From: an uncultured bacterium
Lineage (GTDB): Bacteria > Krumholzibacteriota > Krumholzibacteriia > Krumholzibacteriales > Krumholzibacteriaceae
NCBI GenBank assembly: GCA_963786935.1
Contig: CAWBAN010000001.1
Location: forward strand, 513,158 to 577,157
Reading direction: 5' to 3'
Length of the DNA: 64,000 nt
In this document: one piece after another, positions 4,417 to 39,268 of the stretch
How the letters are laid out: every line of letters starts with the position of its first letter
How positions within the stretch are numbered: position 1 is the stretch's first letter
The notes under the pieces: generated by a model
The model's input: the letters and a program-made list of their open reading frames with translations, nothing else
What the model was told of the DNA's origin: nothing
Database searches by the model: none
Program-made: the position numbers and the translations under genes

Positions 4417-5708
4417 TGCCGAGAATCCTCATGATCATCAATTTCTTTCCGCCCGCGGCGGGGGGCGGGGTGTACCGGCCCCTCTCCTTCGTGAAATACC
4501 TTTCCCGTTTCGGCTGGGACGTCACCGTCGTCACGCCGCGCCCCGGGGAGTTCTGGATCTCCGATCCGGAGCTCGAGCGGGAGATACCTCCCGGCGCGCG
4601 GGTCGTGCGGACCGGTTCCCTCTCGGGGCTTCGATTCCTGCGCTCGCTTCGCGGCGGCGCGGCGGCCGGATCCTCGCGCCGGTCCTCGAGCGGTTTCGCG
4701 GCGCTCAGGCGCCTCGGCGAATTCTTCCTCGTTCCCGACACCTACGTGGGCTGGGCGCCCTTCGCCGCGCGGGAGGCGGAGCGGCTCTGCCGCGAGGAGC
4801 GATTCGACGTCGTCTATTCGACGAGCCCGCCCGACAGCTCGCACCTCGCGGCGCGGCGCGCGGTCCGCGCGGCGGGAATCCCGTGGGTCGCCGACTGCAG
4901 GGATCCGTGGTTCAATCTCCGCCTGCGCCCGACGCCGACGCCGGTTCACCGGGCGCTCCACGAACGCCTCGAGCGCTCGGTTTCGCGCGCCGATCTCGTG
5001 CTCGTGACGACCGAGGCCCACGAACGCCTGCTCCGCGATCGGTATCCGTGGTGCAGGATCGAGCGCATTCCGAACGGATTCGACGAGGATGATTTCGCGG
5101 GAGAATCCGGCGCGCGGCCGCCCGCGGCCCCCTTCACGATCACGCACGGCGGGATGCTCACGCTCGGCCGCAGCACGCGGCCGTTCCTCGAGGGGCTCGC
5201 CGAATTCGCGCGGCGCGTTCCGGACGCGGCGGGCTCGGTCCGCGTCGTATTCATCGGACCGCGGGAGTCGGCGAACGAGGAGTGGGTGAAGCGATTCGGC
5301 CTCGAGGATTTCGTCTCGTTCGAGGACGCGATTCCGCACCGTTCGTGCGTCGCGCGCGAGACGAGGAGCCACGTGCTCCTCCTCATCAAGCACGACGACG
5401 AGCGATACCGGGGCCTCGTGCCGGGCAAGCTCTACGAGTACATCGGGGCGAAGCGTCCCATTCTCGCGGTCGGGCCGGAGGGGGAGGCTTCCCGCCTCGT
5501 GCGGGAGCTCCGGCGCGGAGAGACGCCCCGCATCGACCGGCCGGACGAGATCGCCGCGGCGATCGAGACGATGTACCGGCGCTGGCGCGACGGCACGCTC
5601 GAGCGCGCGTATCCGGTCGAAGACGTCCCGCGCTTCTCGCGGAGGGTCGAGGCGGAGCGGCTCGGCGGGCTGCTCGAGCGGCTGATCGGAGAGCGGGGGG
5701 CGCGATGA
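4417..5708 (+). CDS. Family 4 glycosyltransferase (GT4, GT-B fold)
   Basis: The N-terminus INFFPPAAGGGVYRPLSFVKYLSRFGWDVTVVT matches GT4. The C-half has the EX7E-like region (GKLYEYIGAKRPILAV). The gene lies inside the open frame 3207..5708 and starts at GTG 4417 or ATG 4429. Confidence 0.8.
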
Positions 5709-7225
5709 TTCGGAGCGATATCCGGAACGTGATCCTGGCCGCGGCGCTCTTCGCCGTGCTGCTCCTGCCGCTCCGGGACGCGATCGTCGACGACACGTAC
5801 ATTCACCTCCAGTACGCGACGAACCTCGCCGAGGCAGGGGAGCTGTCCTTCAACCGCGGGGAGCCGACGTACGGCGCCACGAGCCCGCTCTGGGTGGGGA
5901 TCCTCGCGCTGTCCGTGAAAGCGGGCGCCGATCCGCTCGTCGCGTGCCGGATTCTCGCCTGGCTCTTCGCCGTCGCCTCGATCGCGCTCGTCTACCGCAT
6001 CGCGTCGCGGGGTGAGGACGGCGCCTGGACGGCGGCGGCCGCCGCGTTCATACTCGCGGCGGAGGCGTGGTTCGTGCGATGGAGCGCCGTCGGCATGGAG
6101 ACCTCCTTCGCCGTGTTCATGACGCTCGTCGTCTTCGATCTCGCGCGCTGCGCGGCGCGGTCGGCGCGCCGTTCGGCGCTCCTCGGCGGGGCGCTCTTCC
6201 TCGCGGCGCTCTCGCGCCCCGAGGCGATCCTGCTCGTCCCGCTCGCGGCGTTCGCGCTGCTCTTCGCGCGGGGGACGCCGCGGCGATTCGCGTTTCTCCT
6301 CGTGTTCGTTCCGCTCTTCGCCGCGTGGCTCGTCGTGATCGAGCGGCACACGGGGACCATGTTTCCGCTCACCGCGGGAGCGAAGCAGGGCGCGATCGAT
6401 TTCTCCGCCGCGCTGTTCCGGCGCGCCGCGATTCCCGCGCGGATCATGGGGGCGACGCTCCTGCTCCCGTGGGCGGCTCTGCTCGCCGGCATCGCGGCGG
6501 GGCTGATCCGCCGCCGCTCGCTCGGCGCGTACCTCACGGAATCGGGGAGCCTGCGTGATGAGCCGGGAGCGCTCCTCATGCTGCTCTGGGCGTTCTCGCT
6601 CCCCGTCGCGTACGTCGCGCTCGATTTTCAGGTGCTCTCGCGGTATCTCGTGCCGGTCGTTCCGCCCGTGATCGTGCTCGGCCTCGCGGCGTGGCGGAAG
6701 CTCGTCGGCGCTCGGGCGGTGCGCGCCGGCGCGCGCCGGGCGGCGCTCGTCGCCTTCGCCGCGGTCGCCGTCGCGCAGAGCGTGCTCGTCTACGAGATCG
6801 CCGTCGTGCCGCCGACGCGCGCGTTCTCGGCGGCGCTCGAGACGACGCTCGCCGACATGGGGCGCTGGCTTGACCGGAACGCGCCACCGGACGCCCTCGT
6901 CGCCGCGCCCGATATCGGCGCCGTCGGGTATTACTCGCACCGCCGGATCCTCGACCTCGGCGGCCTCGTGACTCCCGAGATCAACCGCATGCGGCGCGGG
7001 ATCGACGTCGAGCGAATCATCGACGAGGGGATGTACCTCCGGTTCGGTCCGGATTACCTCGTCGACCGGCACCGGACGCCCGCGCGCTTCGCCGGACGGA
7101 TCATCGGCGGCGTCTCCTTCGAGCCGGTCATGCGGGGAGAGGCGCCCAATCTCGGCATCAGGAAGCCGGAGCCGGTGGTCTACGTGCTCTACCGGCTCGA
7201 GCGGGTCACGGAGGCGGGCGAATGA
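5705..7225 (+). CDS. GT-C fold membrane glycosyltransferase, ArnT/PMT-like (GT39/GT83 family)
   Basis: The N-terminus DDTYIHLQYATNLAEAGELSFNRGEPTYGATSPLW matches polyprenyl-phosphate-sugar-dependent glycosyltransferases. It is a multi-TM protein with a soluble C-terminal domain. ATG 5705 overlaps the upstream stop. Confidence 0.65.
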   Translation: MIRSDIRNVILAAALFAVLLLPLRDAIVDDTYIHLQYATNLAEAGELSFNRGEPTYGATSPLWVGILALSVKAGADPLVACRILAWLFAVASIALVYRIASRGEDGAWTAAAAAFILAAEAWFVRWSAVGMETSFAVFMTLVVFDLARCAARSARRSALLGGALFLAALSRPEAILLVPLAAFALLFARGTPRRFAFLLVFVPLFAAWLVVIERHTGTMFPLTAGAKQGAIDFSAALFRRAAIPARIMGATLLLPWAALLAGIAAGLIRRRSLGAYLTESGSLRDEPGALLMLLWAFSLPVAYVALDFQVLSRYLVPVVPPVIVLGLAAWRKLVGARAVRAGARRAALVAFAAVAVAQSVLVYEIAVVPPTRAFSAALETTLADMGRWLDRNAPPDALVAAPDIGAVGYYSHRRILDLGGLVTPEINRMRRGIDVERIIDEGMYLRFGPDYLVDRHRTPARFAGRIIGGVSFEPVMRGEAPNLGIRKPEPVVYVLYRLERVTEAGE

Positions 7226-8070
7226 CGGATACCCGCGGCACGAACGCCCGGCGGGGCGGGGGAGGAGCGGCAGCCGCCGAGCCCGTCATCCCGGCGGGGA
7301 TCCCCGCCGATCGGTTCCCCGACCTGCTGCGCAACTGGTTTCTCGGCTCCCGCGCGCGGTCTCACCTGAGCAGGAGGCGCTACCGTGAGATCACGGGCAT
7401 GCTTCGTGGAACGCCGCGCGGGCGCGCCCTCGACGCGGGGTGCGGGTGGGGATACAATCTCTTCCTCCTCGCGCGCGAGGGAATGGAGCCGTTCGGCATC
7501 GACATCGTGCAGAACGATTTTCTCGCGGCGAGAATGATCGCCGAAGCGAACGGCTACGAACCGCTGCTCGCCGGCGCGGACGTGAGCGCCCTCCCGTTCG
7601 CGGCTGACTCGTTCGCCGCGGTCGCCGCCGTCGAAACATTCGAGCACATCTTCGAGCCGGATCGCGCGGGCGCCGCCCGCGAAGCGTGGCGCGTGCTCGA
7701 GCCGGGAGGGGCGCTCGCGATCTCGACGCCGAACTACTACTCGATCGTCGAAACGGGAAAGCGCGTGATCGTCAGATGGGGCTTCCTCAAGCGTCTATTC
7801 CCGACGATGTGCTATCCGGCCGGAATCGTGAAGCGGGAGGATTACCATCCGTACCGCTATCACCGGCCCACGCCGCCCCGCGAGATCGTCAGGCTGTTCG
7901 AGGCGGCCGGATTCCGCGTCGAGCGTACGCGGACGATCATATTCATATGGAAGAACGTGCCCGATTTTCTCTTTCCGGTCGCGCGATTCTGCGAGTCGAT
8001 TCTCGAGCGCACGCCCCTCGTGAAGAACCTCGCCAGCACGCTCGTCGTGCTCGCGAGAAAGCCGTCCTGA
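7222..8070 (+). CDS. Class I SAM-dependent methyltransferase
   Basis: The SAM motif I LDAGCGWGYN and the Methyltransf_11-like spacing (ADSFAAVAAVETFEHIFEP...LEPGGALAIS) are present. ATGA start/stop overlap with the upstream gene. Confidence 0.8.
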   Translation: MTDTRGTNARRGGGGAAAAEPVIPAGIPADRFPDLLRNWFLGSRARSHLSRRRYREITGMLRGTPRGRALDAGCGWGYNLFLLAREGMEPFGIDIVQNDFLAARMIAEANGYEPLLAGADVSALPFAADSFAAVAAVETFEHIFEPDRAGAAREAWRVLEPGGALAISTPNYYSIVETGKRVIVRWGFLKRLFPTMCYPAGIVKREDYHPYRYHRPTPPREIVRLFEAAGFRVERTRTIIFIWKNVPDFLFPVARFCESILERTPLVKNLASTLVVLARKPS

Positions 8071-8097: not shown

Positions 8098-8127
8098 GTC
8101 GAGATGAACGCTCGACTGAATTTTTTT
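8098..8127 (+). terminator. Possible rho-independent terminator after the polysaccharide locus
   Basis: The stem GTCGAG/CTCGAC with a 7-nt loop is followed by TGAATTTTTTT. The stem is short. Confidence 0.35.
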
Positions 8128-8202: not shown

Positions 8203-8235
8203 GACTTTCCTATTGACATGGTGGGAGAAAGTGGG
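8203..8235 (+). promoter_or_regulatory. dcw promoter region: TTGACA hexamer followed by three direct GTGGG repeats at 10-bp spacing (MraZ operator)
   Basis: TTGACA is at 8203-8208. GTGGG is at 8211, 8221 and 8231, which is the same arrangement as the MraZ binding repeats of E. coli and Firmicutes. It lies about 95 bp upstream of mraZ. Confidence 0.6.
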
Positions 8236-8328
8236 TTAGTGTGGGACCACGCTTTACTTTTAAGCGCTCTCAGATGCAGGGATAGGCAGTAGGGCTCTCG
8301 AAATCACGGTCAAGGCAGCGGTCGAGAA

Positions 8329-8778
8329 ATGGCGGAGAAACCCAACAGAAAATTCATCGGCATGTTCCCCTGCACGCTCGACGCCAAGTCGCGGCTGACG
8401 ATTCCGTCGAAGTTCCGCGAGCTCGTTCCCGGCGAGGAGGGCTCCAAGATCCTCGTCATCAGCCGCGGCAAGGAGCGCTGCCTGTATCTGTTCACTCCCG
8501 ACTATTTCGACTGGATCATCGACCAGCTCGGGCTCCTGCCGCCGGGACCGCAGCAGCGGAACCTGATCCGGTATTACAGCAGCGAGTCGGAGCATCTCAA
8601 GGTCGACAAGGTCGGCCGGGTGCAGATGAGCGCGCGCCATCTCGAATCGTTCGGTCTCGCGAAGAACGTCGTCGTCGTCGGCGGCCTCACCCATATGGAA
8701 GTGTGGAAGCCCGAGGAGTACGAAAAGATCATGGAGTCCGCGGACGACGCGTATCACAACGGGGAATGGCAACTGTAG
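8329..8778 (+). CDS. mraZ: Transcriptional regulator MraZ
   Basis: Two MraZ/SpoVT-AbrB-like repeats are present (FPCTLDAKSRLTIPSKFRE ... VDKVGRVQMSARHLESFGL). The true start may be the internal ATG at 8362 (MFPCTLD). Confidence 0.9.
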   Translation: MAEKPNRKFIGMFPCTLDAKSRLTIPSKFRELVPGEEGSKILVISRGKERCLYLFTPDYFDWIIDQLGLLPPGPQQRNLIRYYSSESEHLKVDKVGRVQMSARHLESFGLAKNVVVVGGLTHMEVWKPEEYEKIMESADDAYHNGEWQL

Positions 8779-8790
8779 GACGGTGAGCGC

Positions 8791-9168
8791 ATGAAGATCT
8801 ACCGGAGCGACAAGGGAGGCATCGGGCTGTGGAAGCTCTCCGGAACGGTGGAGCGTGACGATGCCGTTATGCTGCTCAGCTCGCTCAGGGATTTGCGGGA
8901 ATCGAGCCGCGGGTGCTTCATCCTCGATTTTGAAAGGGTCAAGCACGTCGACTACCGCGCCTTCAACGTTCTCGAGGACGGCTACCCCGAGGGGGCCCGC
9001 GTGATCCTGAGCGGATTCAGCGATTACGTGCTCAATATCTTCGCGTTCGTGACGAGAGGGGGCGTGTTCCCCGTCTACACCGATTGGCGGAAGGCCCTCA
9101 GGCATCTCGTCGTCGAGCGCGGGAAGCTCGGCACCCCCATCCCCGCGGGCTCCGCGGGAAGCGAGTGA
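8791..9168 (+). CDS. STAS-domain protein (anti-sigma-factor-antagonist-like) inserted between mraZ and rsmH
   Basis: The pattern follows SpoIIAA-type STAS (ILDFERVKHVDYRAFNVL ... GARVILSGFSDYVLNIFAF ... FPVYTDWRKAL). The usual phosphorylatable Ser is replaced by YRAF. It is tightly spaced within the operon. Confidence 0.55.
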   Translation: MKIYRSDKGGIGLWKLSGTVERDDAVMLLSSLRDLRESSRGCFILDFERVKHVDYRAFNVLEDGYPEGARVILSGFSDYVLNIFAFVTRGGVFPVYTDWRKALRHLVVERGKLGTPIPAGSAGSE

Positions 9169-9176
9169 TATGAGGA

Positions 9177-10094
9177 ATGCCGGCGGAACGACATACACCG
9201 GTCATGGCGGAAGCGGCCGTCGATCTGCTCCTCGCGCGGAAATCGGGTCTCTTCGTGGACTGCACGGTCGGCACGGGCGGCCATACGGAGCTCATCCTGC
9301 AATCGGCGGACCCGTCGGCGGAGGTTCTGGGGATCGATCGCGACGCGGCGGCGCTCGAGGAGGCGCGCGTCCGGCTCGCCCCCTTCGGGGAGCGCGTGAC
9401 GCTCGTCTGCGCGAACTTCCGGGATATCGCAGGGTTGCTCGGCGCACGGAATGCGGACGGCTTTCTCCTCGATCTCGGGCTCTCGACCTACCAGCTCTCG
9501 GACGCGACGCGCGGATTCAGCTACCAATCGAACGGACCGCTCGACATGGCGATGGGGACGGACGGCCGCTCGGTCGCGGAATTCATCGCGTCGAGCGGGG
9601 AGCGAGAGATCGCCGCCGTGCTGCGCGAGTACGGGGAGGAGCGTCGCGCGCGCGGGATCGCGCGGGAGATCGTGCGGCTCAGGGACTCGCGCGGCATGGA
9701 GACGACCCTGCAGCTCCGCGAGGCGGTCGCGAAGGCCGCTCCGGCCCGCGACGTGAACGGCACGTGCTCGCGCGTGTTTCAGGCGCTGCGGATCTGGGCG
9801 AACGGGGAGCTCGAGAGCCTCTCGGCGTTCCTGCCGTCGGCCGTGGATCACGCGCGTCCCGGGGGCAGGCTCGTCGTCATCAGCTACCATTCGCTCGAGG
9901 ATCGAATCGTCAAGCGGTTCTTCAGGCAGGAGGCGCTCGGCTGCGTGTGTCCGAAGGATTTCCCGGAATGCCGGTGCGGAAAGCTCCCGCGTCTGGCGGT
10001 GCTCACGCGGTCGGCGTCGCGGCCGTCACCGGAAGAGATCGAACGAAATTCGCGGTCGCGGAGCGCGAGACTCCGCGCGGCAGAGAGGTTGTGA
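9177..10094 (+). CDS. rsmH: 16S rRNA (cytosine1402-N4)-methyltransferase RsmH (MraW)
   Basis: Full-length family match (FVDCTVGTGGHTELIL, FLLDLGLSTYQLSDATRGFSY, QALRIWANGELESL, ISYHSLEDRIVKRFF). Confidence 0.95.
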   Translation: MPAERHTPVMAEAAVDLLLARKSGLFVDCTVGTGGHTELILQSADPSAEVLGIDRDAAALEEARVRLAPFGERVTLVCANFRDIAGLLGARNADGFLLDLGLSTYQLSDATRGFSYQSNGPLDMAMGTDGRSVAEFIASSGEREIAAVLREYGEERRARGIAREIVRLRDSRGMETTLQLREAVAKAAPARDVNGTCSRVFQALRIWANGELESLSAFLPSAVDHARPGGRLVVISYHSLEDRIVKRFFRQEALGCVCPKDFPECRCGKLPRLAVLTRSASRPSPEEIERNSRSRSARLRAAERL

Positions 10095-10095
10095 G

Positions 10096-10521
10096 ATGAG
10101 CACGAACAGCGGATACGCCTCGGGATTTCACCTTCTCGTCAAGCGGGCGCTCGAGGGCAGGGTCACGCCCCTTACCTTTCTTCTCATCCTCGGATTCTTC
10201 TCGACGCTCGTCCTCTTCTACATTTCGCTGCACGTCTATTTTTTCAATATCTCGAACGACATAGCCGGCATGAGCGAGCGCGTCGACGCGCTCATGGACG
10301 CGAACGTGCGTCTCATGGCCTCCTACAACGTGCTCGCCTCGCCCGGCCGGATCATCCCGATGGCGCAGGATCTCGGATTGCGGGCGGGCTCGACCGACGA
10401 AGTCCATCGGCTCGCGCTCCGCATCGACGCCTCGTCCGACCGGGAGGAGCCGTCGTGGGCGCAGCTCAGGATGGATGAGTTGCTGGAGCTCGCACCCTTC
10501 CAGAAGCCGGGGACGAAATGA
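10096..10521 (+). CDS. ftsL: Cell division protein FtsL-like (small bitopic membrane protein)
   Basis: It sits between rsmH and ftsI. It has a single TM helix (LTFLLILGFFSTLVLFYISL) followed by a short periplasmic coiled-coil region. The ATGA overlap with ftsI supports the call. Confidence 0.6.
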   Translation: MSTNSGYASGFHLLVKRALEGRVTPLTFLLILGFFSTLVLFYISLHVYFFNISNDIAGMSERVDALMDANVRLMASYNVLASPGRIIPMAQDLGLRAGSTDEVHRLALRIDASSDREEPSWAQLRMDELLELAPFQKPGTK

Positions 10522-12659
10522 GCGAAATGTATCCGAGACGCCGCCTGCGCGCGCTGTCGATCGCCGTCACGCTCATCGTCGGCGTCCTCGCCTACCGGCT
10601 CGTCGACCTCCAGATCATCGATCACGAAAGGTACGTCACGAAGGCGAAGGGGCAGTGGTACCGCCGGCAGACGATCCCCGCCCGGCGGGGGAACATCTTC
10701 GACCGGAACGGATTCCCGCTCGCGGTGACGCACTGGACCTATACGATCGGCGTGACGCCGAAGCACTTCCCCGCGGACGACCGGACCGCGGTCGCCCGCC
10801 TCGCGCTCGCCTGTGATCTCTCCAAAAAGGAGCTGCGCCGCCGGCTCGGCCGGAACGACACCTACATTCTGCTCGGCAAGGATCGTCATTTGGACGAAGA
10901 GCAGGTGGCGCAGCTCTCCCGCCTCCCCGGCGTGCGCCTCGATCCCAATCACGACCGTATCTACCCGTACGACGCGATGCCCCCGCAGCTCGTGGGTGCG
11001 ATCCGCGCGGACGGAAAGGGCACGGCAGGCGTCGAGCTCGCGTTCCAGGACGTGCTCGCCGGCGAGGACGGATGGCTGCTCGAGAGCCAGCTCTCGGGTG
11101 ATCGCAAGGGATTCCAGCCGGTCAACGCCCCGGGGCGAAAGCCGCGCAACGGCACCGATCTCTACCTCACGATCGACACGCGGATACAGACGATCGTCGA
11201 CTTCGAGCTCGAGGCGGCGATCGAGCGCTACCGCGCCGCGGGGGGCGTGGCGCTCGTCGTCGAGCCGGCGACCGGAGACGTGCTCGCCATATCCGAGCAG
11301 CCGCGGCGCGAGGTGGCGCGCGACGGGTCCGCGGTCGACGGGTTCGCGCTCCAGTCGATCAACTGCATCTACGAGCCGGGCTCGACCTTCAAGCTCATCA
11401 CCGATTCCTACCTTCTCGAGGCGGGGAAGGTCGACCCGTACGACGCGTTCTTCGGCGAGAACGGGAAAGCGACTTTCGAGTTCGGGACCTTCCACGACGA
11501 TCACGAGTTCGGATGGCTCAGCTTCAAGGAATCATTCGTCTATTCGAGCAATATCTGCACGATCAAGGCGGCCCTCGCCGCGACCCCCGACGAATTCTAC
11601 CGGCACATTCTCCGGTTCGGATTCGGCGGGAGGACCGGCATCGAGCTCCCCGCCGAGTCCCGCGGGACGCTCCGCGAGCCGCGGCTCTGGTCGGATCGCT
11701 CGCTCGCGAGCATCGCCATCGGCCACGAGATCGGCGTCACGCCGATACAGATGGCGATGGCGTACGCGGCGCTCGCCAACGGCGGGAGCCTCCTCGCCCC
11801 GCGGATCGCGCTCGAGGCGCGGGACGCCCGGAACTCCGTCGTCCGCGCCTTTCCGGTCGCCGCGGTGCGGAAGGTGTTCTCGGAGCGCACGGCGGCCACG
11901 ATGCGCGATTTCTGCGAGGAGGTCGTGCTCAAGGGAACGGGCGTGAAGGCCGCGGTGAACGGTATCGCGGTGGCGGGGAAGACGGGAACGTCGCAAAAAG
12001 TCGTGAACGGCCGCTACGGGGACGAGAAATACGTCGTGAGCTTCATCGGCTTCGCGCCGGCACGGGATCCGCGGATCGTGTGCGTCGTCGTCCTCGACGA
12101 GCCGGTCTATCCGTATTACTGGGGCGCCGAATCGTCGGCCCCGCTGTTCGCGAAGATCGTCGAGGGCATCAACCTGTCGACCGATCTCTTCTGCGATCCC
12201 GACGGCGCGAACGTCGCCGTCGGCGGGAAATCGCGCGGTTCGAAGCGCGTGCCGAGCTTCCTCCGCCTCACGACGGACGAGGCGACGGATCTCGCCTCGG
12301 AATGCGGCCTCACCGTGAACTGTCCCGACGTCAAGGGAATCGTCTTCTCGCAGTCCCCCGATCCCGGCACGCTCGTCGGCCGGAAGGACGAGGTGAAGCT
12401 CATGGTCCGCGCGGCCGTGTCGAACGAGGCGTCGCCGCCGAGCGTTCCCGACGTCGCGGGGCTTTCGATCCGCGAGGCGCGGCGGCTGCTCCTCGCGTGC
12501 GGGCTCGACTGCGTCGTGCGCGGATTCGGCGTCGTCGAGCGGCAGGATCCGCCGGCGGGGACGATCATCTCCCGGCTCGGCAGGGTGCTGCTGATCTGCA
12601 ATCCGTTGAGCGAAGAGCCGGTCCGGGCGGCCGAGCGGGGGAACGGAGCGTCGGATTGA
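10518..12659 (+). CDS. ftsI: Peptidoglycan D,D-transpeptidase FtsI (PBP3) with two C-terminal PASTA domains
   Basis: An N-terminal TM segment, a PBP dimerisation domain and a transpeptidase domain with STFK (SXXK), SSN and KTGT motifs are all present. Two PASTA repeats follow at the C-terminus. Confidence 0.95.
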   Translation: MSEMYPRRRLRALSIAVTLIVGVLAYRLVDLQIIDHERYVTKAKGQWYRRQTIPARRGNIFDRNGFPLAVTHWTYTIGVTPKHFPADDRTAVARLALACDLSKKELRRRLGRNDTYILLGKDRHLDEEQVAQLSRLPGVRLDPNHDRIYPYDAMPPQLVGAIRADGKGTAGVELAFQDVLAGEDGWLLESQLSGDRKGFQPVNAPGRKPRNGTDLYLTIDTRIQTIVDFELEAAIERYRAAGGVALVVEPATGDVLAISEQPRREVARDGSAVDGFALQSINCIYEPGSTFKLITDSYLLEAGKVDPYDAFFGENGKATFEFGTFHDDHEFGWLSFKESFVYSSNICTIKAALAATPDEFYRHILRFGFGGRTGIELPAESRGTLREPRLWSDRSLASIAIGHEIGVTPIQMAMAYAALANGGSLLAPRIALEARDARNSVVRAFPVAAVRKVFSERTAATMRDFCEEVVLKGTGVKAAVNGIAVAGKTGTSQKVVNGRYGDEKYVVSFIGFAPARDPRIVCVVVLDEPVYPYYWGAESSAPLFAKIVEGINLSTDLFCDPDGANVAVGGKSRGSKRVPSFLRLTTDEATDLASECGLTVNCPDVKGIVFSQSPDPGTLVGRKDEVKLMVRAAVSNEASPPSVPDVAGLSIREARRLLLACGLDCVVRGFGVVERQDPPAGTIISRLGRVLLICNPLSEEPVRAAERGNGASD

Positions 12660-15539: not shown

Positions 15540-16659
15540 TGCTGTACTGGCTCCTGTACCCGCTCCGCGAGCACTTCTTCGCGTTCAACGTGTTCCGCTA
15601 CATCACGTTCAGGGCCGCGTACGCCATGGTCACGGCGCTCCTGATCTGCTTCGTGTTCGGGCCGCTCCTCATCCGGGCGCTCCGGAAGCTCCAGATCGGC
15701 CAGCGCATCCGGAACGAGGCGCCGGACAGCCACCAGCGGAAGGAAGGAACACCGACGATGGGAGGCGTGCTCATCATCGCCGCGACCGTCGTGCCGACGC
15801 TCCTCTGGGGAAACCTCGCGAATCCCTACATCCAGGTGGCGCTCGTCGTCACGCTCTGGACCGGCCTCATCGGTTTCCTCGACGATTACCTGCGCGTCGT
15901 GAAGAAGACCGAGAAGGGGCTCGTCGGCCGCTACAAGCTCCTCGGACAGTTCGTGTTCGGCGCCGCCCTCGGCGTGTTCCTCTATATGCACCCGCTCGTT
16001 CGCGAGGGCGCGACCGAGAGCGCCGTGCCGTTCCTCAAGAACTACTCGATCGAGTGGGGGCTCCTGTACATCCCGTTCGTCATCTTCGTCATCATGGGGG
16101 CCTCCAACGCGGTGAATCTCACCGACGGGCTCGACGGGCTCGCCGCGGGGGCCTCGGCCTTCAGCTTCTTCGCCTTCGCGGCGCTCGCGTACATCAGCGG
16201 CCACCGGACGTTCGCCGGCTATCTCAACATCCCGTACATGCCGGGCTGCGGCGAGCTCACCGTGTACTGCCTGGCCATGGTCGGCGCGTCGCTCGGTTTC
16301 CTCTGGTACAACACGCACCCCGCCGCAGATCTTCATGGGGGATACGGGATCCCTCTCGCTCGGCGGGGCGCTCGGCACGGTGGCGGTGCTGCTCAAGCAG
16401 GAGCTCCTCCTCGTCATCATCGGCGGCATCTTCGTCGCCGAGGCGCTGTCCGTGATCCTGCAGGTCGGATCGTTCAAGCTGACGGGGAAGCGGATATTCA
16501 ACATGGCTCCCATCCACCACCATTTCGAGCTCAAGGGGTGGCGCGGAGAAAAAAGTGGTCGTGCGGTTCTGGATCATCGCGGCGCTGCTCGCGCTCTTGA
16601 GCATCAGCACGCTCGAAGCTGCAGTAGGGAGCCGCGGATGGCGGATGCGAAGCGTATGA
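15539..16659 (+). CDS. mraY: Phospho-N-acetylmuramoyl-pentapeptide transferase MraY; reading frame interrupted twice (near 16322 and near 16542)
   Basis: Frame 2 covers the gene as far as LWYNTHPA, frame 0 gives [17 protein letters not shown]...HHHFELKGW, and frame 1 gives the C-terminal [19 protein letters not shown]. Each junction is consistent with one extra nucleotide. Confidence 0.85.
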
Positions 16660-18006
16660 AACAGCACAACGAATACAGCGGAAAACGGGTGCTCGTCCTC
16701 GGCCTCGCGCGGAGCGGCGTCGCCGCGATGCGCCTCCTGCGCGATGCCGGCGCGACGGTAATCGGCGCCGACGAAAACGCCGCGGTGGAGATTCCGTCCG
16801 AGCTCGCGGGAGCGGATCTTCATCGCGGCGCATTTGACGACGCGCTCCTCGATCGCGTCGACGAGGTCGTCGTGAGCCCCGGCATCCCGATCGATCACCC
16901 GCTCATGCTCGCGGCGAGCGCGCGGGGCGTCTCGCTCGCGAGCGAGCTCGAGATCGCCGCCCGCTTCGCGCAGGGGCATCTCATCGGCGTAACGGGCTCG
17001 AACGGAAAATCGACGACGGTCACGATGATCGGCGAGCTGCTCAAAGCGGCGGGGCGCCGCGCCGTCGTCTGCGGCAACGTGGGGCTCCCGTTCTCGTCGG
17101 TCGCGCGCGATCTCGGCCCGGACGATTATTACGTGCTCGAGATATCGAGCTTCCAGCTCGAGACGATCTCGCGGTTTCATCCCGAAGTCGCCGGCATTCT
17201 CAATCTCACGCCGGATCATCTCGACCGCTATCACGACGTCGAGGATTACTACCGGTTCAAGGAGCGGATCGTCGAGAACTGCGGTCCGAACGACACGTTC
17301 TTCTACAACGCGCTCGATCGCCGGTGCGCGGCGGTCGCGCGCCGTTTCGCGGGCGCGATCGGTGCCGTTCTCGTCCGCCGGTCCCGTCGAGGCGGGCGTC
17401 TATCTCGACGAGGGCGGGCGGCTCGTTCGCGAGCGCGGCGGGGCCCGCGAGGCGTTCCTCGAGCGGGGCGAGCTCGGCGTCATCGGCGTGCACAACGTGG
17501 AAAACGCGTTGGCGGCGGTGGCGGCGCTCGCTCCCTTCGACGTGAGCGCGTCCGCCTGCCGGAAGGCCCTGTCCGAGTTCAGGGGGCTCCCGCACCGGAT
17601 GGAGCGGGTCGCGATCGTCCGCGGCGTGACGTACTACAACGATTCGAAGGGCACGAACGTCGAGGCGACGATGATGTCCCTCAAGGGGCTCGACCGCCCC
17701 GCGGTCCTCATCGCCGGCGGACACGACAAGGGAGGGGATTTCACGAAGCTCATCCCCGTGCTCGCCCGCGTGAGGGCGATCGTGACGATCGGCGAGGCCG
17801 CGCCGCTCATCGAGGAAGCGCTCGGATCGGTCGTGCCGATCGCGCGCGCGGCGACGATGCAGGACGCCGTCGAGACGGCGGCGCGCACCGCGCAGGAGGG
17901 GGACCTCGTGCTCCTGTCTCCGGCGTGCGCGAGCTTCGACATGTTCAGGAATTTCGAGCATCGGGGAGAGGTGTTCGCGGAATGCGTGAAAGCGCTGCAG
18001 AGATAG
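16638..18006 (+). CDS. murD: UDP-N-acetylmuramoylalanine--D-glutamate ligase MurD; reading frame interrupted near 17355-17362
   Basis: The N-half is in frame 0 ([29 protein letters not shown]). The C-half is in frame 1 ([38 protein letters not shown]). Confidence 0.85.
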
Positions 18007-19178
18007 CGGATTTCGCAAGCCGGGGCAGGTGCGATCTCAAGCTCGTGCTCGCGACGGTCGCGCTCGTCGTGCTCGGGCTCGTCATGATCGCCTCCGCCGG
18101 CCAGATGGTGAAGCTCCAGGGGGCGAGCGGACCGCATTTCCATTTCTTTTTCCGCCAGCTCACGCTCGCCGGCCTCGGCCTCCTCGGCATGGTCGCCGCG
18201 ATGAAGGTGCCGTACCGGCTCTACCAGAAGCACGCGCTCAAGCTGCTCGTCGCCGCGTTCGTGCTCCTCGCCGCGGTGCTCGCGGTCGGGACGAAGATCC
18301 GCGGATCGAGCCGCTCGATCTACATCGCGAATTTCGATTTCCAGCCGGTCGAGGCGGCGAAGATCGCCCTCGTGATCTTCCTCGCCGCGAAGATCTCCGA
18401 GTGGGGGGAGCGCGTCAGGGATTTCAAGCGGGGATTTCTTCCCCTCGCCGGGACCGGAACGGCGATGGCAGTCATGGTGGCGCTGCAGCCGAACATATCG
18501 AACGCCGTCCTCATCATGATGATCACGTTCGTCGTGCTCTTCGTCGCCGGGTGCCGGATCAAGCACCTCCTCATCTTCGGCGGCGCGCTGCTCGTCGCGG
18601 CGACGCCGGCGCTCCTGCAGGTGTCGAAGGTGATCACGAGATTCTCGACGTACCTGCGACCGCGGGAGGGGACCCCGGCGAATTTCCAGCTCGAGCAGTC
18701 GCTCATCGCGCTCGGATCGGGCTCGGTCTTCGGCGCGGGGCCGGGCAGGGGGCATCAGAAGTACCGCTTCCTCCCCGACGCGCACACCGACTTCATCTAT
18801 TCGATCATCGGAGAGGAGCTCGGTCTCATCGGGACGATGGCCGTGCTCCTCCTCTTCGTGCTCATTTTGCGGCGCGCGGTGCGGACGGCGCTCCGCGCTC
18901 CCGACTCGTTCGGGTACGTCCTCGCGCTCGGGACGGGGCTCCTCGTGTTCATGTCGGCGATCATCAATATCGCGATGGCGACCGGGGTCATCCCCACGGC
19001 GGGGCTGCCGCTGCCGTTCATCAGCTACGGCGGCTCCTCGCTCGTCGCCTCGCTCGCCGCCATCGGCATCATCGCGAACGTCTCGTACGAGGGCAGGGAG
19101 CGCGCCGGGGGCACCGGGCTGTTCGGCCTGCGCCGGGGAACGAAGAATGTGTTCGCGAAGCGCGTCGAGCGCGCGTAG
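17982..19178 (+). CDS. ftsW: SEDS-family peptidoglycan glycosyltransferase FtsW
   Basis: ATG 17982 overlaps the murD end. The protein has about 10 TM segments and the FtsW/RodA signature ([29 protein letters not shown]). Confidence 0.9.
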
Positions 19179-28479: not shown

Positions 28480-30576
28480 ATGGACAGCAGGGATCGACGC
28501 GGAGGGCCGCTGCAGGACAGCAGCCAGTTCATCAAGGGGGTGGGACCGGCCCGGCAGGTGCTCCTCGAGCGCCTCGGCATCAAGACGGTCGAGGACCTCG
28601 TATCCCATTTTCCCCGGGCCTATTACGACCGGCGGGACCTCATGCCGGTCGGGAAGCTCCCCTTCGGCGCCCCGACGACCTTCGTCGCCACGATTCTCGC
28701 CGTCTCGACGAGGCGGGCCCGCAAGGGCCGCCATATCTTCACCGTCGCCGTCGGCGACGAGACAGGGGTCGTGAGCCTCGTTTTCTTCAATCAGCCCTAC
28801 CTCGAAAAATACTTCAAGCAGGGGGAGCGCGTCGTCGTGAGCGGCGAGATGGCCCTCTATCGCGATCAGCGGCAGATGATCTCCCCCGAGTACGAGATCA
28901 TCGGGGGGGAGCTCTCGGAATCGCTCCTTCACGCGGGGAGGATCGTCCCCGTCTATCCGCTCACCGCGGGCATCTCGCAGCGGATGATGCGGAAGATCGT
29001 GGCCGCCGCGTGCGAGAAATACGGCGGCTTCGTCGGCGAGAATCTCTCCGACGCGCTCCGCGCGGCTTTCGACGTGCCGCCGCGGGCCGAGGCGATCCGC
29101 CAGATCCATTACCCCGACTCGTACGAGGCGCTCGAGCGAGCGCGCCGGCGGTTCAAGATCGAAGAGGTCTTTTTCCTGCACCTCCTCATCAAGGAGCGGC
29201 GCACGAGCCTCACGCGGAGGAAGCGGCGGCCGCCGGTCGAGGCGCCGCATCCGCTCCTCGATCGGTTCCTCGGAGGGCTCCCCTTCGCGCTCACCGGCGC
29301 GCAGCGGCGCGTGCTCGACGAGATCCGCGGCGACGTCGAGAAGGGGGGGCTCAACCGGCTCCTCCAGGGGGAGGTCGGCTCGGGGAAGACGGTCGTGGCC
29401 CTCGCCGCGACGATGCTCGCCCTCGGGAAGGGCTATCAGGCGGCCCTCATGGCGCCGACGGAGATCCTCGCGCTCCAGCACCACGAGCGCGCCCGCGCCC
29501 TGTGCGAGGGGCTCGACCTGCGCGTCGAGCTCCTCATCGGCTCGACGCCGCGGGCCGACAAGCAGCGCATCCAGGAGCAGGTGCGGTCCGGCGGCGTGGA
29601 CCTCGTGATCGGGACGCACGCGCTCATCCAGGAGAGCATCTCGTTCAAGCAGCTCGGGCTCGCCGTCATCGACGAGCAGCACCGGTTCGGCGTGCGGCAG
29701 CGGGCGGTCTTCGGGCAGGGGGATCTCGTTCCGCATTTCCTCGTCATGACGGCGACGCCGATTCCGCGGAGCCTCGCCCAGACGGTCTACGGCGATCTCG
29801 ATCTTTCGATCATCGACGAGCTTCCCGGCGGCAAGCGGTTCGTGCGGACGCTGATCGTCCCCGCCGACGGCCGCGAGGGCGTCTACGAGGAGATCCGCTC
29901 CGCGTTCAGGGCGGGGCGTCAGGCGTTCATCCTCTACCCGCTCGTGCAGGAGAGCGAGGGGAGCGATTTCCTCGCGGCCACGGAGGAGTTCGAGCGCCTC
30001 CAGCGCGAAGATTTCTCCGAGTTCCCCCTCGGCCTCCTCCACGGGCGCATGAGCTTCGAGGAGAAGGGGAAGGCGATCGCGCTCTTCAGGCGCGGCGAAA
30101 TCCTCGGCCTCGTGACGACGACCGTCATCGAGGTCGGCGTCGACATCCCGAACGCCTCGATTCTCCTCGTGAACAATCCGGAGCGGTTCGGGCTCGCGCA
30201 GCTCCACCAGCTCCGCGGACGCGTGGGCCGCGGCGGAAACGAAGGCGCGTGCTTCCTGCAGCTCAGCGGCGAGATCGGCGCCGCGGCCCGGGAGCGTCTC
30301 GCGTTCTTCGCCTCGCACGACGACGGCTTCGCGGTCGCCGAGGAGGACCTGCGGCTCCGGGGGCCCGGGGAGATCTGGGGGCACCGGCAGTCGGGGTACC
30401 CGCATTTCAGGCTCGTCAATCCGCTGAGCGATCACGACCTCGTGCAGCTCTCGTGGGAAGAGAGCGAGCGGCTCCTCGAACGGGATCCGGGGCTCACGCG
30501 GGCCGAGAACAGGGAGCTCGCGGCCTATTTCGAGCGATCGTACAAACCGAGAATGGAGCTCGCCGATATCGGATGA
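28480..30576 (+). CDS. recG: ATP-dependent DNA helicase RecG
   Basis: The wedge/OB N-domain is present. Helicase motifs include GEVGSGKT (Walker A), DEQHRFGV and a QLHQLRGRVGRG motif VI. It is full length at 698 aa. Confidence 0.95.
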   Translation: MDSRDRRGGPLQDSSQFIKGVGPARQVLLERLGIKTVEDLVSHFPRAYYDRRDLMPVGKLPFGAPTTFVATILAVSTRRARKGRHIFTVAVGDETGVVSLVFFNQPYLEKYFKQGERVVVSGEMALYRDQRQMISPEYEIIGGELSESLLHAGRIVPVYPLTAGISQRMMRKIVAAACEKYGGFVGENLSDALRAAFDVPPRAEAIRQIHYPDSYEALERARRRFKIEEVFFLHLLIKERRTSLTRRKRRPPVEAPHPLLDRFLGGLPFALTGAQRRVLDEIRGDVEKGGLNRLLQGEVGSGKTVVALAATMLALGKGYQAALMAPTEILALQHHERARALCEGLDLRVELLIGSTPRADKQRIQEQVRSGGVDLVIGTHALIQESISFKQLGLAVIDEQHRFGVRQRAVFGQGDLVPHFLVMTATPIPRSLAQTVYGDLDLSIIDELPGGKRFVRTLIVPADGREGVYEEIRSAFRAGRQAFILYPLVQESEGSDFLAATEEFERLQREDFSEFPLGLLHGRMSFEEKGKAIALFRRGEILGLVTTTVIEVGVDIPNASILLVNNPERFGLAQLHQLRGRVGRGGNEGACFLQLSGEIGAAARERLAFFASHDDGFAVAEEDLRLRGPGEIWGHRQSGYPHFRLVNPLSDHDLVQLSWEESERLLERDPGLTRAENRELAAYFERSYKPRMELADIG

Positions 30577-30646
30577 GCGGCGGCGCACCGGCGGGGTGCA
30601 TGAGACCTCGCCGGGTCCGCCGCAACCGGGGCGAAGGAGGCGGTCG

Positions 30647-31195
30647 ATGATTTCGAGACGGGAAGCGCTCGACCTCGTGAACGCGAATCTCACGAAGAAG
30701 AATCTCGTCAAGCACACGCTCGCCGTCGAAGCGATCATGCGCGCGATGGCCAAGCGATTCGGCGAGAGCGAGGAGCTCTGGGGGCTCGCCGGCCTCCTGC
30801 ACGATCTCGACTACGAGCGAACCGCGGACGATCCCGCGCGCCACGGGCGCCTCACGGTCGAGATGCTCGAGGGCGTCGACGTTCCCGCGGAGGTCAAGGA
30901 CGCGATCCTCGTCCACGCGGGGCACCGCCCGCGCAACTCTTCTCTGGACAAGGCGATATGCTGTGTCGATCCCGTAACTGGCTTAATAGTTGCATCGGCC
31001 CTCATGCATCCCTCGAAGCGCGTCGCCGGGCTGGCCCCGGACTTCGTGGGAAAGCGTTTCAAGGAAAAGCGGTTCGCGGCGGGCGCAAACCGCGAAGCGA
31101 TTGCAAACGTGAGCGAGCTGGGTCTCGAATTGCACGAGTTCTTCTCCGTTTCGATCGAGGCGATGATCGGCATCTCCAGGGAGCTGGAGCTTTAG
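30647..31195 (+). CDS. HD-domain phosphohydrolase
   Basis: The H...HD...D metal motif (HTLAVEAIMRA...GLLHDLDYER...VHAGH) is typical of HD/HDIG hydrolases. Confidence 0.75.
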   Translation: MISRREALDLVNANLTKKNLVKHTLAVEAIMRAMAKRFGESEELWGLAGLLHDLDYERTADDPARHGRLTVEMLEGVDVPAEVKDAILVHAGHRPRNSSLDKAICCVDPVTGLIVASALMHPSKRVAGLAPDFVGKRFKEKRFAAGANREAIANVSELGLELHEFFSVSIEAMIGISRELEL

Positions 31196-31237
31196 AAACG
31201 GGGCCCGGTGGGGGACATCAGCCGGAGGATCAAAGCG

Positions 31238-31807
31238 ATGATCGTCACTTGCGATGGATGCAGCACCAAGTATCTTCTCGACGACGCGAAGGTGCCCGAG
31301 AGGGGAATCCGCGTGAGGTGTCCGAAGTGCCGCTACGTCTGGCGGCTCATGCCGGTCGCGGACAAGTCGATGTTCGAGATCTCCGCGAGCGCGTTCTCCG
31401 ACACGGCGCCGGTCGCGGAGACCCCGAAAGGGGAGTGGGATTCGCTCGAGCGCTCGCTCTCGGCGCTCGCGGGGCGCATGGCGCCGCGCGAGGAAGACGT
31501 CGTCATCGACGAGGAACGCCCGGCCGCGGCGGCTCCGCCGAAGGCCGCGGAGGATCCCGAGGCGCGGCGATTCAAGGAGCGCTCAAAAAGATTGGCGCGC
31601 GTCTTCGTCAGTGATATTCTCGTATACAACAAGGACAAGCGGGACAAGGGGCTCGCCAGCGGCGATCTCATGACGGTCCTCGGTCCCGAGATCAAGAAGG
31701 CGTGGGAGGCCTACAAGGAGAAGATCGGCCCCAGCGTCGTCGAATCGAACGATTATTTCCGCGAGGCGTTGAACGATATTCTGGCCGACGGGCAGAAAGT
31801 ATTCTGA
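31238..31807 (+). CDS. Zinc-ribbon (MJ0042-type CxxC...CxxC) domain protein with uncharacterised C-terminal domain
   Basis: The N-terminus is MIVTCDGCSTKYLLDD...RVRCPKCRYVW. A Pro/Ala-rich linker and a conserved-looking C-terminal domain follow. Confidence 0.55.
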   Translation: MIVTCDGCSTKYLLDDAKVPERGIRVRCPKCRYVWRLMPVADKSMFEISASAFSDTAPVAETPKGEWDSLERSLSALAGRMAPREEDVVIDEERPAAAAPPKAAEDPEARRFKERSKRLARVFVSDILVYNKDKRDKGLASGDLMTVLGPEIKKAWEAYKEKIGPSVVESNDYFREALNDILADGQKVF

Positions 31808-31810
31808 GTC

Positions 31811-32644
31811 GTGAATGGCGATAGAATCGCTCTCGATATCCTGAATCTCAACCCGCCGCTGCGCGACGAATTTTTCGCCGCGGCGAAGCTCCCGGACGAG
31901 GTGTCGATCAGGGAATTCGACACGTTCGCCCGGTTCATAAAGGGCATCAAGGCCGATTCCGACTACCGCTCCAATCTGCTCATCTTTCTTCCGCCCAAGA
32001 AATTCGATCCCAAGAAGGCGCGCCTCGTGCGCATCGCGCGCCTCGAGGCGCCCCTCTACGTCGTCGCGCGGGAGTGCGGCGAGAAGGACTATCTCACGTA
32101 TCTCGCCGTCGGCGTCAACGCGGTGATGCAGCCGCCGTTCGGCAAGGGGGACGTGCAGCAGGCCCTGAACGGCCGTTCGCACGATCAGATTCCCTTCCCG
32201 CGGAGCGCCGACGTCATCAAGGAGGGGCAGGTGCGCCTCGATTTCCTCATCCCGAGCAAGCTCTCGCGCATCCTCGGCGTGAACCGGCTCGTCTCCTTTC
32301 TCGCCGACGAGTTCGGTTTCCCTCCCGAGGACAGCAAGGTCAACCTGCCGCTCGTCATGGACGAGGCACTGAGCAACGCGATCGTGCACGGGAACAGGAA
32401 CCGCGAAGACCGCAAGGTCCACGTGCGCATCTACGTCAGCTCGCACCGCTTTTTCGTGCAGGTGGAGGACGAGGGGGAGGGATTCCAGCCGGACGAGACG
32501 ATCGATCCGAAACGGGGGGAGAACCTCGTGAAGCCGTCCGGCCGCGGAATCTATCTCATGCGGGAGCTCATGGACCGGGTCGCCTTCAAGGAAGGCGGGC
32601 GCCTGGTCGAAATGGAGAAGATCAATCCCTTCTCGCGCGCCTAG
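31811..32644 (+). CDS. Anti-sigma-factor-like serine kinase (RsbW/SpoIIAB-type HATPase_c) fused to a degenerate receiver-like N-domain
   Basis: The C-half LVMDEALSNAIVHGNRNREDRKVHVRIYVSSHRFFVQVEDEGEGF...SGRGIYLMRELMDRVAF is the GHKL N-box/G-box arrangement of partner-switching kinases. The N-domain has a receiver-like layout but no obvious phospho-Asp. Confidence 0.65.
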   Translation: MNGDRIALDILNLNPPLRDEFFAAAKLPDEVSIREFDTFARFIKGIKADSDYRSNLLIFLPPKKFDPKKARLVRIARLEAPLYVVARECGEKDYLTYLAVGVNAVMQPPFGKGDVQQALNGRSHDQIPFPRSADVIKEGQVRLDFLIPSKLSRILGVNRLVSFLADEFGFPPEDSKVNLPLVMDEALSNAIVHGNRNREDRKVHVRIYVSSHRFFVQVEDEGEGFQPDETIDPKRGENLVKPSGRGIYLMRELMDRVAFKEGGRLVEMEKINPFSRA

Positions 32645-37532: not shown

Positions 37533-37688
37533 CTCGTTCCGAAGTGCCGGGGTGGGCGCTTCGCAGCGTCACGGCAGGGTCAGCACCCCCAGATCGAGCA
37601 TCGAGGAATCTGCTCCAGAACACGGCTTCCGTGCGCGCGCATCGGGTGAGCAGCATTCCCACCCCGGCGCAGATTGAAAGGGAGTGAT

Positions 37689-38789: not shown

Positions 38790-38899
38790 ACGCGCGAAAA
38801 GACTTGACCCGATACGAGACGGGGTGTGAAAATCGGAACCGGAGCGCTCGACAGGCTCCGGTTTTTCGATTATATTTGCGTTATAGAGGGGGAGCCGCC

Positions 38900-39268
38900 A
38901 TGGCGAAGATATTGATCGTCGACGACGAAGTCAACGTGAGGAAGCTCTACAGCGAAGAGCTTCGGAGCGAAGGGTACCTTACCGTCTCGGCGGCCACCGT
39001 CGCGGAGGCGATCGAGTCGGTGGAGAAGGAGGAGCCTGATCTCGTCATTCTCGATATCAAGCTCGGCGAGGAGAGCGGCATCGACGCCCTCATGAAGATC
39101 GCCAAGCAGCGCAAGCGGCTGCCGGTGATCCTGAACTCCGCGTACTCGGTCTACAAGGACAATTTTCAGACGTGGGCGGCGGACGCGTATATCGTGAAAT
39201 CGGTCGATCTCACGCCGCTGAAGGAAAAGATACGGGATCTTTTGACGACACGGAGGACGCAGGCGTGA
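38900..39268 (+). CDS. Single-domain CheY-like response regulator
   Basis: Receiver pattern: KILIVDDE, phospho-acceptor DLVILDIKL, T/S in LNSAYS and K in YIVKS. It lies inside track ORF 38786..39268. Confidence 0.85.
   Translation: MAKILIVDDEVNVRKLYSEELRSEGYLTVSAATVAEAIESVEKEEPDLVILDIKLGEESGIDALMKIAKQRKRLPVILNSAYSVYKDNFQTWAADAYIVKSVDLTPLKEKIRDLLTTRRTQA

Follow-up and report, generated by a model that had tools for sequence, protein, structure and literature searches.

STAS proteins act through protein–protein binding, and their best-known role is in controlling the transcription machinery. The anti-anti-sigma factors SpoIIAA and RsbV (PF01740/PF13466) are stand-alone domains of about 115-125 aa that carry a phospho-acceptor serine, and in SpoIIAA–SpoIIAB complexes SpoIIAA docks on SpoIIAB via the face formed by the N-termini of helices α2 and α3. 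RsbS, the stressosome scaffold protein, is also a single-domain STAS protein, which is phosphorylated on Ser59 by RsbT and encoded with rsbR and rsbT. MlaB, of the MlaFEDB lipid transporter, is a stand-alone STAS protein with Thr at the site equivalent to the phospho-acceptor, and serves as a permanent binding partner rather than as a phospho-switch. In SLC26/SulP proteins the STAS module is a C-terminal domain fused to an anion transporter, and some STAS domains have been reported to bind nucleotides. The gene described here is situated between mraZ and rsmH, the two genes that open the dcw cluster in most bacteria; overproduction of RsmH reportedly counters MraZ toxicity in E. coli. Regulators of the AbrB superfamily are commonly under the control of small protein antagonists, AbbA being a small protein antagonist of AbrB itself.

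The protein encoded at 8791..9168 of the window (the whole 64 kb stretch of DNA that was analysed) resembles SpoIIAA and RsbV in predicted fold and topology, these proteins being among its best structural and sequence-profile matches, and in being a stand-alone protein of about the same length. Conservation in the family to which it belongs, referred to here as Tyr-type, is concentrated on the β3-α2/β4-α3 face, which is the docking face of SpoIIAA for SpoIIAB. The family differs from SpoIIAA and RsbV in having Tyr or Phe rather than the phospho-acceptor Ser, in having a His52/Arg56/Tyr79 signature, and in the location of the gene inside the dcw operon without an adjacent kinase, phosphatase or sigma gene, while in the members from Krumholzibacteriota the C-terminal helix is also longer and contains an ERGK motif that does not vary. 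Thus, neither of two hallmarks of an anti-sigma antagonist, a conserved Ser/Thr at the N-terminus of α2 and a neighbouring kinase gene, was found. RsbS is the closest single-domain match by TM-score, but neither phosphorylation of a Ser59 equivalent by RsbT nor association with rsbR and rsbT applies to the window protein. The likeness to MlaB extends to one family member having been automatically named 'MlaB component' by JGI; however, MlaB matches the family profile only weakly (E 0.002), and no mlaF, mlaE or mlaD genes were present in any of the dcw loci whose context was read. Fusion to a transporter, as in SLC26/SulP proteins, was not seen, all members being stand-alone. AbbA-type antagonists offer a functional analogy only, that of a small protein controlling an AbrB-type regulator, since they have no sequence or fold relationship to the STAS protein and the interaction of the latter with MraZ is hypothetical.

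The STAS gene within the dcw operon

The features of the mraZ–rsmH region are as follows, with coordinates given as window positions.

8098..8126, + strand: terminator-like hairpin and T-run (stem 8098-8116, tail TGAATTTTTT), a consensus match only
8213..8218, + strand: TTGACA, resembling a -35 hexamer, immediately before the MraZ boxes
8221..8244, + strand: three MraZ boxes, GTGG-N6-GTGG-N6-GTGG (GTGGGAGAAAGTGGGTTAGTGTGG), located by pattern scan
8329..8778, + strand: mraZ, 149 aa (Pfam MraZ 5.7e-19, two repeats; TIGR00242 3.3e-24, below the curated cutoff)
8779..8790, + strand: 12-nt spacer (GACGGTGAGCGC) with a GGTGAG motif, spacing and motif being kept in close relatives
8791..9168, + strand: stand-alone STAS-fold gene, Ser-less (Tyr-type) and dcw-associated, 125 aa, ATG start
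9169..9176, + strand: 8-nt spacer between the STAS gene and rsmH
9177..10094, + strand: rsmH (mraW), encoding the 16S rRNA m4C1402 methyltransferase, 305 aa (Methyltransf_5 3.4e-92)
10096..10521, + strand: ftsL-like gene, 141 aa, identified by its position between rsmH and ftsI, which is conserved in relatives (FtsL_Actino E 0.054)
10518..12659, + strand: ftsI (PBP3)

The 125-codon ORF with flanking gaps of 12 and 8 nt, as given in a preliminary description of this locus, was confirmed at these coordinates. Since the window, at 66% GC, contains 181 ORFs of at least 120 aa, the length of the ORF alone is not significant. The GC3 of the gene (0.85, compared with 0.84-0.89 in neighbouring genes), the existence of 67 database homologues with 50-89% identity, nearly all of 125 aa, and pairwise dN/dS values of 0.10-0.19, calculated between close relatives with unsaturated dS, together indicate that the STAS ORF on the + strand is coding. 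The dN/dS values are no higher than those of rsmH (0.18-0.23) and similar to those of mraZ (0.12-0.27), and the orthologues are 125 aa long in 18 of 18 species-level loci. The preliminary description had proposed conservation in close relatives, and the absence of a high dN/dS ratio, as a check on the gene, and retention in 18 species under purifying selection bears this out. Long chance ORFs are common in high-GC DNA, as exemplified by a 312-aa ORF antisense to the STAS locus (8260..9198), but the idea that the STAS ORF is spurious, or a decaying remnant without function, has practically no probability and was rejected in view of the dN/dS values, the constant length in all 18 species, the GC3, and the preservation of position and motif across lineages at roughly cross-phylum divergence. 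The STAS gene is, therefore, a real gene under purifying selection.

The pattern at 8221..8244 fits the described MraZ box consensus, namely GTG(G/T) with 6-nt spacers, usually in three copies (PMC12957436). The triple GTGG-N6 pattern has its sole match in the window at this position and recurs in 20 of 26 related loci, at a distance of 64-187 nt upstream of mraZ. TTGACA precedes the MraZ boxes in most related loci, and a strict sigma-70 scan found no full promoter. The hairpin at 8098..8126, which follows the upstream methyltransferase gene, likely represents the end of the preceding transcription unit. The genes directly upstream of the dcw operon (5282-8070) encode a PMT_2-like membrane glycosyltransferase and a class I methyltransferase, the latter being kept across Krumholzibacteriota with 58-82% identity (L002-L018, L026 and L028). 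A scan of the stretch revealed no convincing terminator or promoter between mraZ, the STAS gene and rsmH, the sole terminator-like match within these genes being a weak one at 8911-8923, inside the STAS ORF, in a region where the number of matches was at chance level. Neither tRNA genes nor Rfam families at gathering threshold were detected in the whole 64 kb window.

In most lineages the genes are spaced 11-17 nt apart, and the GGTGAG motif in the spacer between mraZ and the STAS gene is possibly Shine-Dalgarno-like. The STAS gene and rsmH overlap (-1, -4, -4 and -17 nt) or are separated by gaps of 2-8 nt in many lineages, with the STAS stop codon overlapping, or falling within 2 nt of, the rsmH start in five of them. 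Two lineages have a gap of 72-136 nt between mraZ and the STAS gene, which there abuts rsmH. In all 31 contexts read, the Tyr-type STAS gene is second in the dcw operon. It would be transcribed from the promoter at the MraZ boxes, and with a shared promoter and tight spacing or overlap the STAS protein would be made together with MraZ and RsmH. RsmH itself scored 272.7 bits against TIGR00006, above the cutoff of 154.3, and the whole dcw cluster is contained in the window, through ftsZ at about 24.9 kb.

Two minor features of the cluster can be recorded. The junction of the STAS gene with rsmH (9169-9179) shows a TGA-yATG-nnnn-ATG pattern that is kept in L001-L013, which places a conserved ATG, in a different reading frame from rsmH, 7 nt ahead of the rsmH start codon. 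Further downstream, a 947-aa ORF at 16335-19178 covers murD (about 16680-18006) and ftsW (about 18029-19178), which at face value suggests a MurD-FtsW fusion. This was rejected as a frame artefact, the MurD N and M domains being read in a different frame from the MurD C domain (17362..18006), with an Arg-rich out-of-frame stretch between the M and C domains. The apparent frameshift in murD near 17.3 kb reflects an error of assembly or else a genuine disruption of the gene.

Fold and signature of the encoded protein

Searches with the single STAS protein against Pfam and NCBIfam gave sub-threshold STAS matches only, the Pfam scores being 14.2 bits for STAS_2 (gathering threshold 29.2; E 0.05) and 12.8 bits for STAS (gathering threshold 22.6; E 0.1), whereas distant members of the family pass the Pfam STAS thresholds. 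An AlphaFold2 model built from an alignment of 31 sequences (A1) had a pLDDT of 81.7, with elements at E2-8, E11-20, H22-34, E42-53, H55-64, E70-74, H78-87 and H99-112, i.e. in the order β1-β2-α1-β3-α2-β4-α3-α4 that is the classic SpoIIAA/STAS topology. Foldseek comparison of the model with the PDB returned 33 matches at E<=1e-3, nearly all of them STAS-domain chains, the best being SpoIIAA (1th8_B; E 2.3e-6, TM-score 0.68 query-normalised and 0.73 target-normalised) and RsbS (6jhk_B; 0.75 query-normalised and 0.80 target-normalised, the highest of all matches), followed by RsbV, SulP/SLC26 STAS domains and MlaB-like proteins. At the profile level, HHalign of A1 with an alignment of Ser-type STAS proteins gave 99.5% probability (E 2e-23), and the wider family profile (A5) found SpoIIAA in the PDB at E 6e-11. 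The predicted structure and the profile matches thus establish membership of the window protein in the STAS superfamily, in keeping with the preliminary description, which had suggested structure prediction as a check. Members of the family are stand-alone proteins of 110-148 aa, annotated mostly as 'hypothetical protein' and in some cases as 'STAS domain-containing protein' or 'anti-anti-sigma factor'.

The residues that set the family apart are encoded at two places in the gene.

8944..8958, + strand: codons for His52-Val-Asp-Tyr55-Arg56, at the β3/α2 junction, in which Tyr55 replaces the SpoIIAA/RsbV phospho-serine
9013..9027, + strand: codons for Gly75-Phe-Ser-Asp-Tyr79, in the β4/α3 loop

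The preliminary description had noted an HVDYRAF motif, which corresponds to residues 52-58 of the protein, and had taken the usual phosphorylatable Ser to be replaced within it. This reading was upheld, Tyr55 falling on the SpoIIAA Ser58 phospho-acceptor column in three independent alignments: by HMMER against 1th8_B, by MAFFT with Ser-type STAS proteins and a manually entered B. subtilis SpoIIAA sequence, and by HHalign. Asp54 aligns with the conserved Asp that precedes the phospho-acceptor Ser. When Tyr-type members were defined as those with His52 plus Tyr or Phe at position 55, giving 160 sequences, position 55 was occupied by Tyr (147) or Phe (13), position 56 mostly by Arg (138) and less often by His (12) or Lys (8), and Gly75 was present in 158. 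Tyr79 was found in 160/160 despite lying outside the filter, while the invariance of His52 is defined by the filter. Ser at position 55 is sporadic (2 sequences). In a subgroup of 133-aa proteins from Krumholzibacteriota (P0069, P0171, P0174, P0183 and P0191) position 55 is Arg, His, Leu or Ser, with His52, Arg56 and Tyr79 kept, so that, on comparison of these sequences, the former phospho-site does not need its side chain in this subgroup. Since position 55 varies (Tyr, Phe, Arg, His, Leu or Ser), phosphorylation there, whether of Ser or of Tyr, is no family-wide mechanism.

The constant features of the family are, then, His52, Arg56, Gly75 and Tyr79, and from STAS topology the signature residues would sit at the adjacent N-termini of helices α2 and α3. 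In the alignments displayed for the top five PDB hits of the A5 profile the position-55 column held Ser or Ala, none being Tyr-type, whereas the window protein carries the full signature, His52-x-x-[Tyr/Phe]55-[Arg/His/Lys]56 plus Gly75 and Tyr79. Judged by these residues, the Tyr-type, dcw-associated STAS proteins are a distinct and recognisable Ser-less subfamily, which is defined in this analysis and by which proteins that are now mostly labelled 'hypothetical protein' become recognisable as Ser-less STAS proteins. In the members from Krumholzibacteriota, residues 99-125 (nt 9085-9165) comprise a C-terminal helix of extended length, in which Trp99 and the Glu-Arg-Gly-Lys at 109-112 are invariant, and a Gly/Ser/Ala tail modelled with low confidence. 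The helix and tail are absent outside Krumholzibacteriota and may provide a lineage-specific extra contact.

Occurrence across lineages

A scan of GTDB with one genome per species yielded 18 loci, labelled as Krumholzibacteriota/Krumholzibacteriia or bearing outdated or unclassified labels (UBP1, 'Patescibacteria group bacterium' or 'uncultured bacterium'), and the order mraZ-STAS-rsmH-ftsL-ftsI was observed in all 18 as far as the contig extends. An exhaustive profile search of 1.84 billion representative proteins returned only 7 close representatives and a tail of ordinary-length STAS proteins, about half of which carry H-x-x-Y-R and S-x-Y-[VIL]. Searches seeded with motif-bearing sequences from this tail gave contexts of which all readable ones had the gene between mraZ and rsmH. 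The further loci with the STAS gene in this position are the following.

L019 (on a 5.98-Mb contig), L020/L021, L022, L023 (an NCBI 'Cystobacterineae' MAG), L024 and L025
L026-L029: Krumholzibacteriota-level relatives, with RsmH 54-58% identical
L031-L033: from a metagenome scan with a narrow alignment (A7)

Together with the 18 GTDB loci, the STAS gene was located between mraZ and rsmH in 31 of 31 contexts read. Divergence between the window and L019-L025 is roughly cross-phylum, with identities of 39-43% for RsmH, about 30% for FtsI and, where matched, 24-30% for MraZ and 25-30% for the STAS protein; the GC content of these loci is 0.52-0.71, and labels among the lineages other than Krumholzibacteriota include 'Cystobacterineae', 'Proteobacteria bacterium' and 'Latescibacteria 4484_7'. 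The signature His52-x-x-Tyr/Phe55-Arg56 plus Tyr79 is common to STAS proteins of no more than 22-28% identity whose hosts stand at this distance (RsmH about 40% identical). The preliminary description had presented the gene as inserted between mraZ and rsmH. Its position was borne out but a local insertion was not, since the same order at about 40% RsmH and 30% FtsI identity indicates a recurrent, family-specific dcw component. The sole Ser-type relative with a readable control context (P0082) is located beside a menaquinone-biosynthesis gene, outside the mraZ-rsmH interval. Two multi-domain STAS matches (P0084 and P0097) proved to be ordinary Ser-type repeat proteins and were discarded as offering no fusion clue.

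Distances between STAS proteins correlate with those between FtsI proteins (r = 0.92), which fits inheritance together with the dcw cluster. Tyr-type monophyly was recovered in 53/200 bootstraps of a neighbour-joining tree and in 0/200 with the signature columns masked, so that the case for a single origin is made by the motif and the position that the members have in common. Full-text literature searches found no paper linking STAS proteins with mraZ or the dcw cluster. On the evidence of gene order and signature, the Tyr-type STAS gene is a previously undescribed, lineage-restricted member of the dcw operon; what is new is the subfamily signature and the strict genomic association, whereas the STAS fold is known. 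Since the gene lies between mraZ and rsmH in every context read, encodes a fold associated with regulatory binding, and recurs at roughly cross-phylum distance, its product is a concrete candidate for a regulatory input to the MraZ/RsmH module. It also offers a testable handle on the pairing of MraZ with RsmH, accessible via synthetic genes despite the hosts being uncultured.

Candidate partners and modes of action

Without the phospho-acceptor Ser the STAS protein cannot be a phospho-switch of the RsbV/SpoIIAA type. It may instead be a phosphorylation-independent adaptor or sensor that binds the product of a gene in its own operon via the canonical STAS face, where the His/Tyr/Arg/Tyr signature is found. 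The candidate partner is MraZ, in which case binding of the STAS protein would modulate how far MraZ occupies the three operator boxes, and through this the transcription of the dcw cluster. MraZ was picked because it lacks a sensor domain, because its fold class is often controlled by small antagonists, and because STAS proteins bind the transcription machinery; the DNA-binding domain of MraZ is of the AbrB (swapped-hairpin) type (PMC12957436). Both the binding and the identity of the partner are put forward tentatively, as a possible reading of the locus.

Sequence divergence provides some points against MraZ as the partner. In a mirror-tree analysis the STAS protein correlated with RsmH at r = 0.90 and with MraZ at 0.82, and with FtsI divergence removed the partial correlations were 0.15 and 0.00, respectively, values of little information. 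Among the 18 GTDB loci, conservation is often stronger in the STAS protein than in MraZ: in L007, L008 and L010-L013 identity to the window is 36-66% for MraZ, compared with 61-82% for the STAS protein and 57-72% for RsmH, as in L010 with 72% for STAS and 36% for MraZ. It seems from these comparisons that MraZ evolves in jumps in Krumholzibacteriota, while STAS and RsmH change gradually. The nil partial correlation between STAS and MraZ, and the divergence of MraZ without matching change in STAS, count against the proposed interaction with MraZ.

The same data bear on a first alternative, in which the STAS protein would bind RsmH or its 30S substrate and modulate m4C1402 methylation, and rsmH, not mraZ, would be what ties it to the dcw cluster. 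The overlaps or short gaps with rsmH in many lineages favour it, as does the slightly closer tracking of RsmH than of MraZ, and the two lineages in which 72-136 nt separate mraZ from a STAS gene that abuts rsmH fit a link with RsmH at least as well. However, a partial correlation of 0.15 is negligible and, to our knowledge, RsmH acts alone in all studied bacteria. Modulation of RsmH activity is thus considered unlikely, even with RsmH being nearly as likely a partner as MraZ.

About equally doubtful is a role as a small-molecule sensor, with His52, Tyr55, Arg56 and Tyr79 binding an anionic ligand such as a nucleotide, (p)ppGpp or a UDP-MurNAc precursor, and the output directed at a divisome or peptidoglycan-synthesis protein. 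Residues of these types bind phosphates and stack on bases, those of the signature are located at two helix N-termini, and the gene has a complete dcw cluster around it, all of which would suit a sensor, but a protein–protein interface would conserve the signature face equally. A more speculative scheme, to which a rather low probability is attached, would make the Tyr-type STAS protein the physical link behind the mraZ-rsmH pairing, as a ligand-set, phosphorylation-free switch between MraZ and RsmH or the ribosome. Transcription of the dcw cluster would then follow the status of the ribosome or of cell-wall precursors, in a system that some deep lineages would have kept and that model organisms would have lost or never acquired.

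A further alternative concerns a gene elsewhere in the window.

31811..32644: RsbW-like ATPase gene (HATPase_c_2 1.2e-21; RsbW 6m36_A 5.5e-8)

The presence of an RsbW-type kinase-like protein at 31811, pointed out in the preliminary description, was substantiated by the HATPase_c_2 match, the only one in the window, and intact N, G1 and G2 ATP-binding boxes are visible in its sequence. The N-terminal 150 residues, which would hold the putative pseudo-receiver domain of the preliminary description, gave no Pfam match, and a single-sequence AlphaFold2 model of the protein had a pLDDT of 39.5. Within 28480-32644 the gene is preceded by recG, an HD-domain gene and an MJ0042-type zinc-ribbon gene, all on the same strand with gaps of 3-20 nt, the ATPase gene starting 3 nt after the zinc-ribbon gene.

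The STAS protein could be envisaged as a non-phosphorylatable anti-sigma antagonist that titrates this ATPase, or a similar kinase, thereby linking a sigma factor with dcw expression. The closest structures, those of SpoIIAA and RsbV, are of proteins bound to their kinases, and the protein encoded at 31811 has its ATP-binding boxes intact with no STAS gene alongside. Conversely, the two genes are 22.6 kb apart, that for the ATPase being within its own HD/zinc-ribbon/kinase string, where no STAS, sigma or PP2C gene adjoins it. No sigma factor, PP2C or second STAS gene was found among the annotated window genes, and in 0 of the 31 dcw loci examined, which span deep lineages, was a kinase, PP2C/phosphatase or sigma gene beside the STAS gene. 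Moreover, the acceptor Ser is absent, and Phe, Arg, His and Leu are all accepted at position 55. The division-linked partner-switching circuit with the 31811 kinase, conceived in the preliminary description, is therefore unsupported, there being no adjacent kinase or PP2C gene in any locus, and titration of such a kinase by the STAS protein is judged to be quite improbable. Elsewhere in the window (37674-39268), a gene for an Arf/MglA-like small GTPase precedes one that encodes a stand-alone response-regulator receiver.
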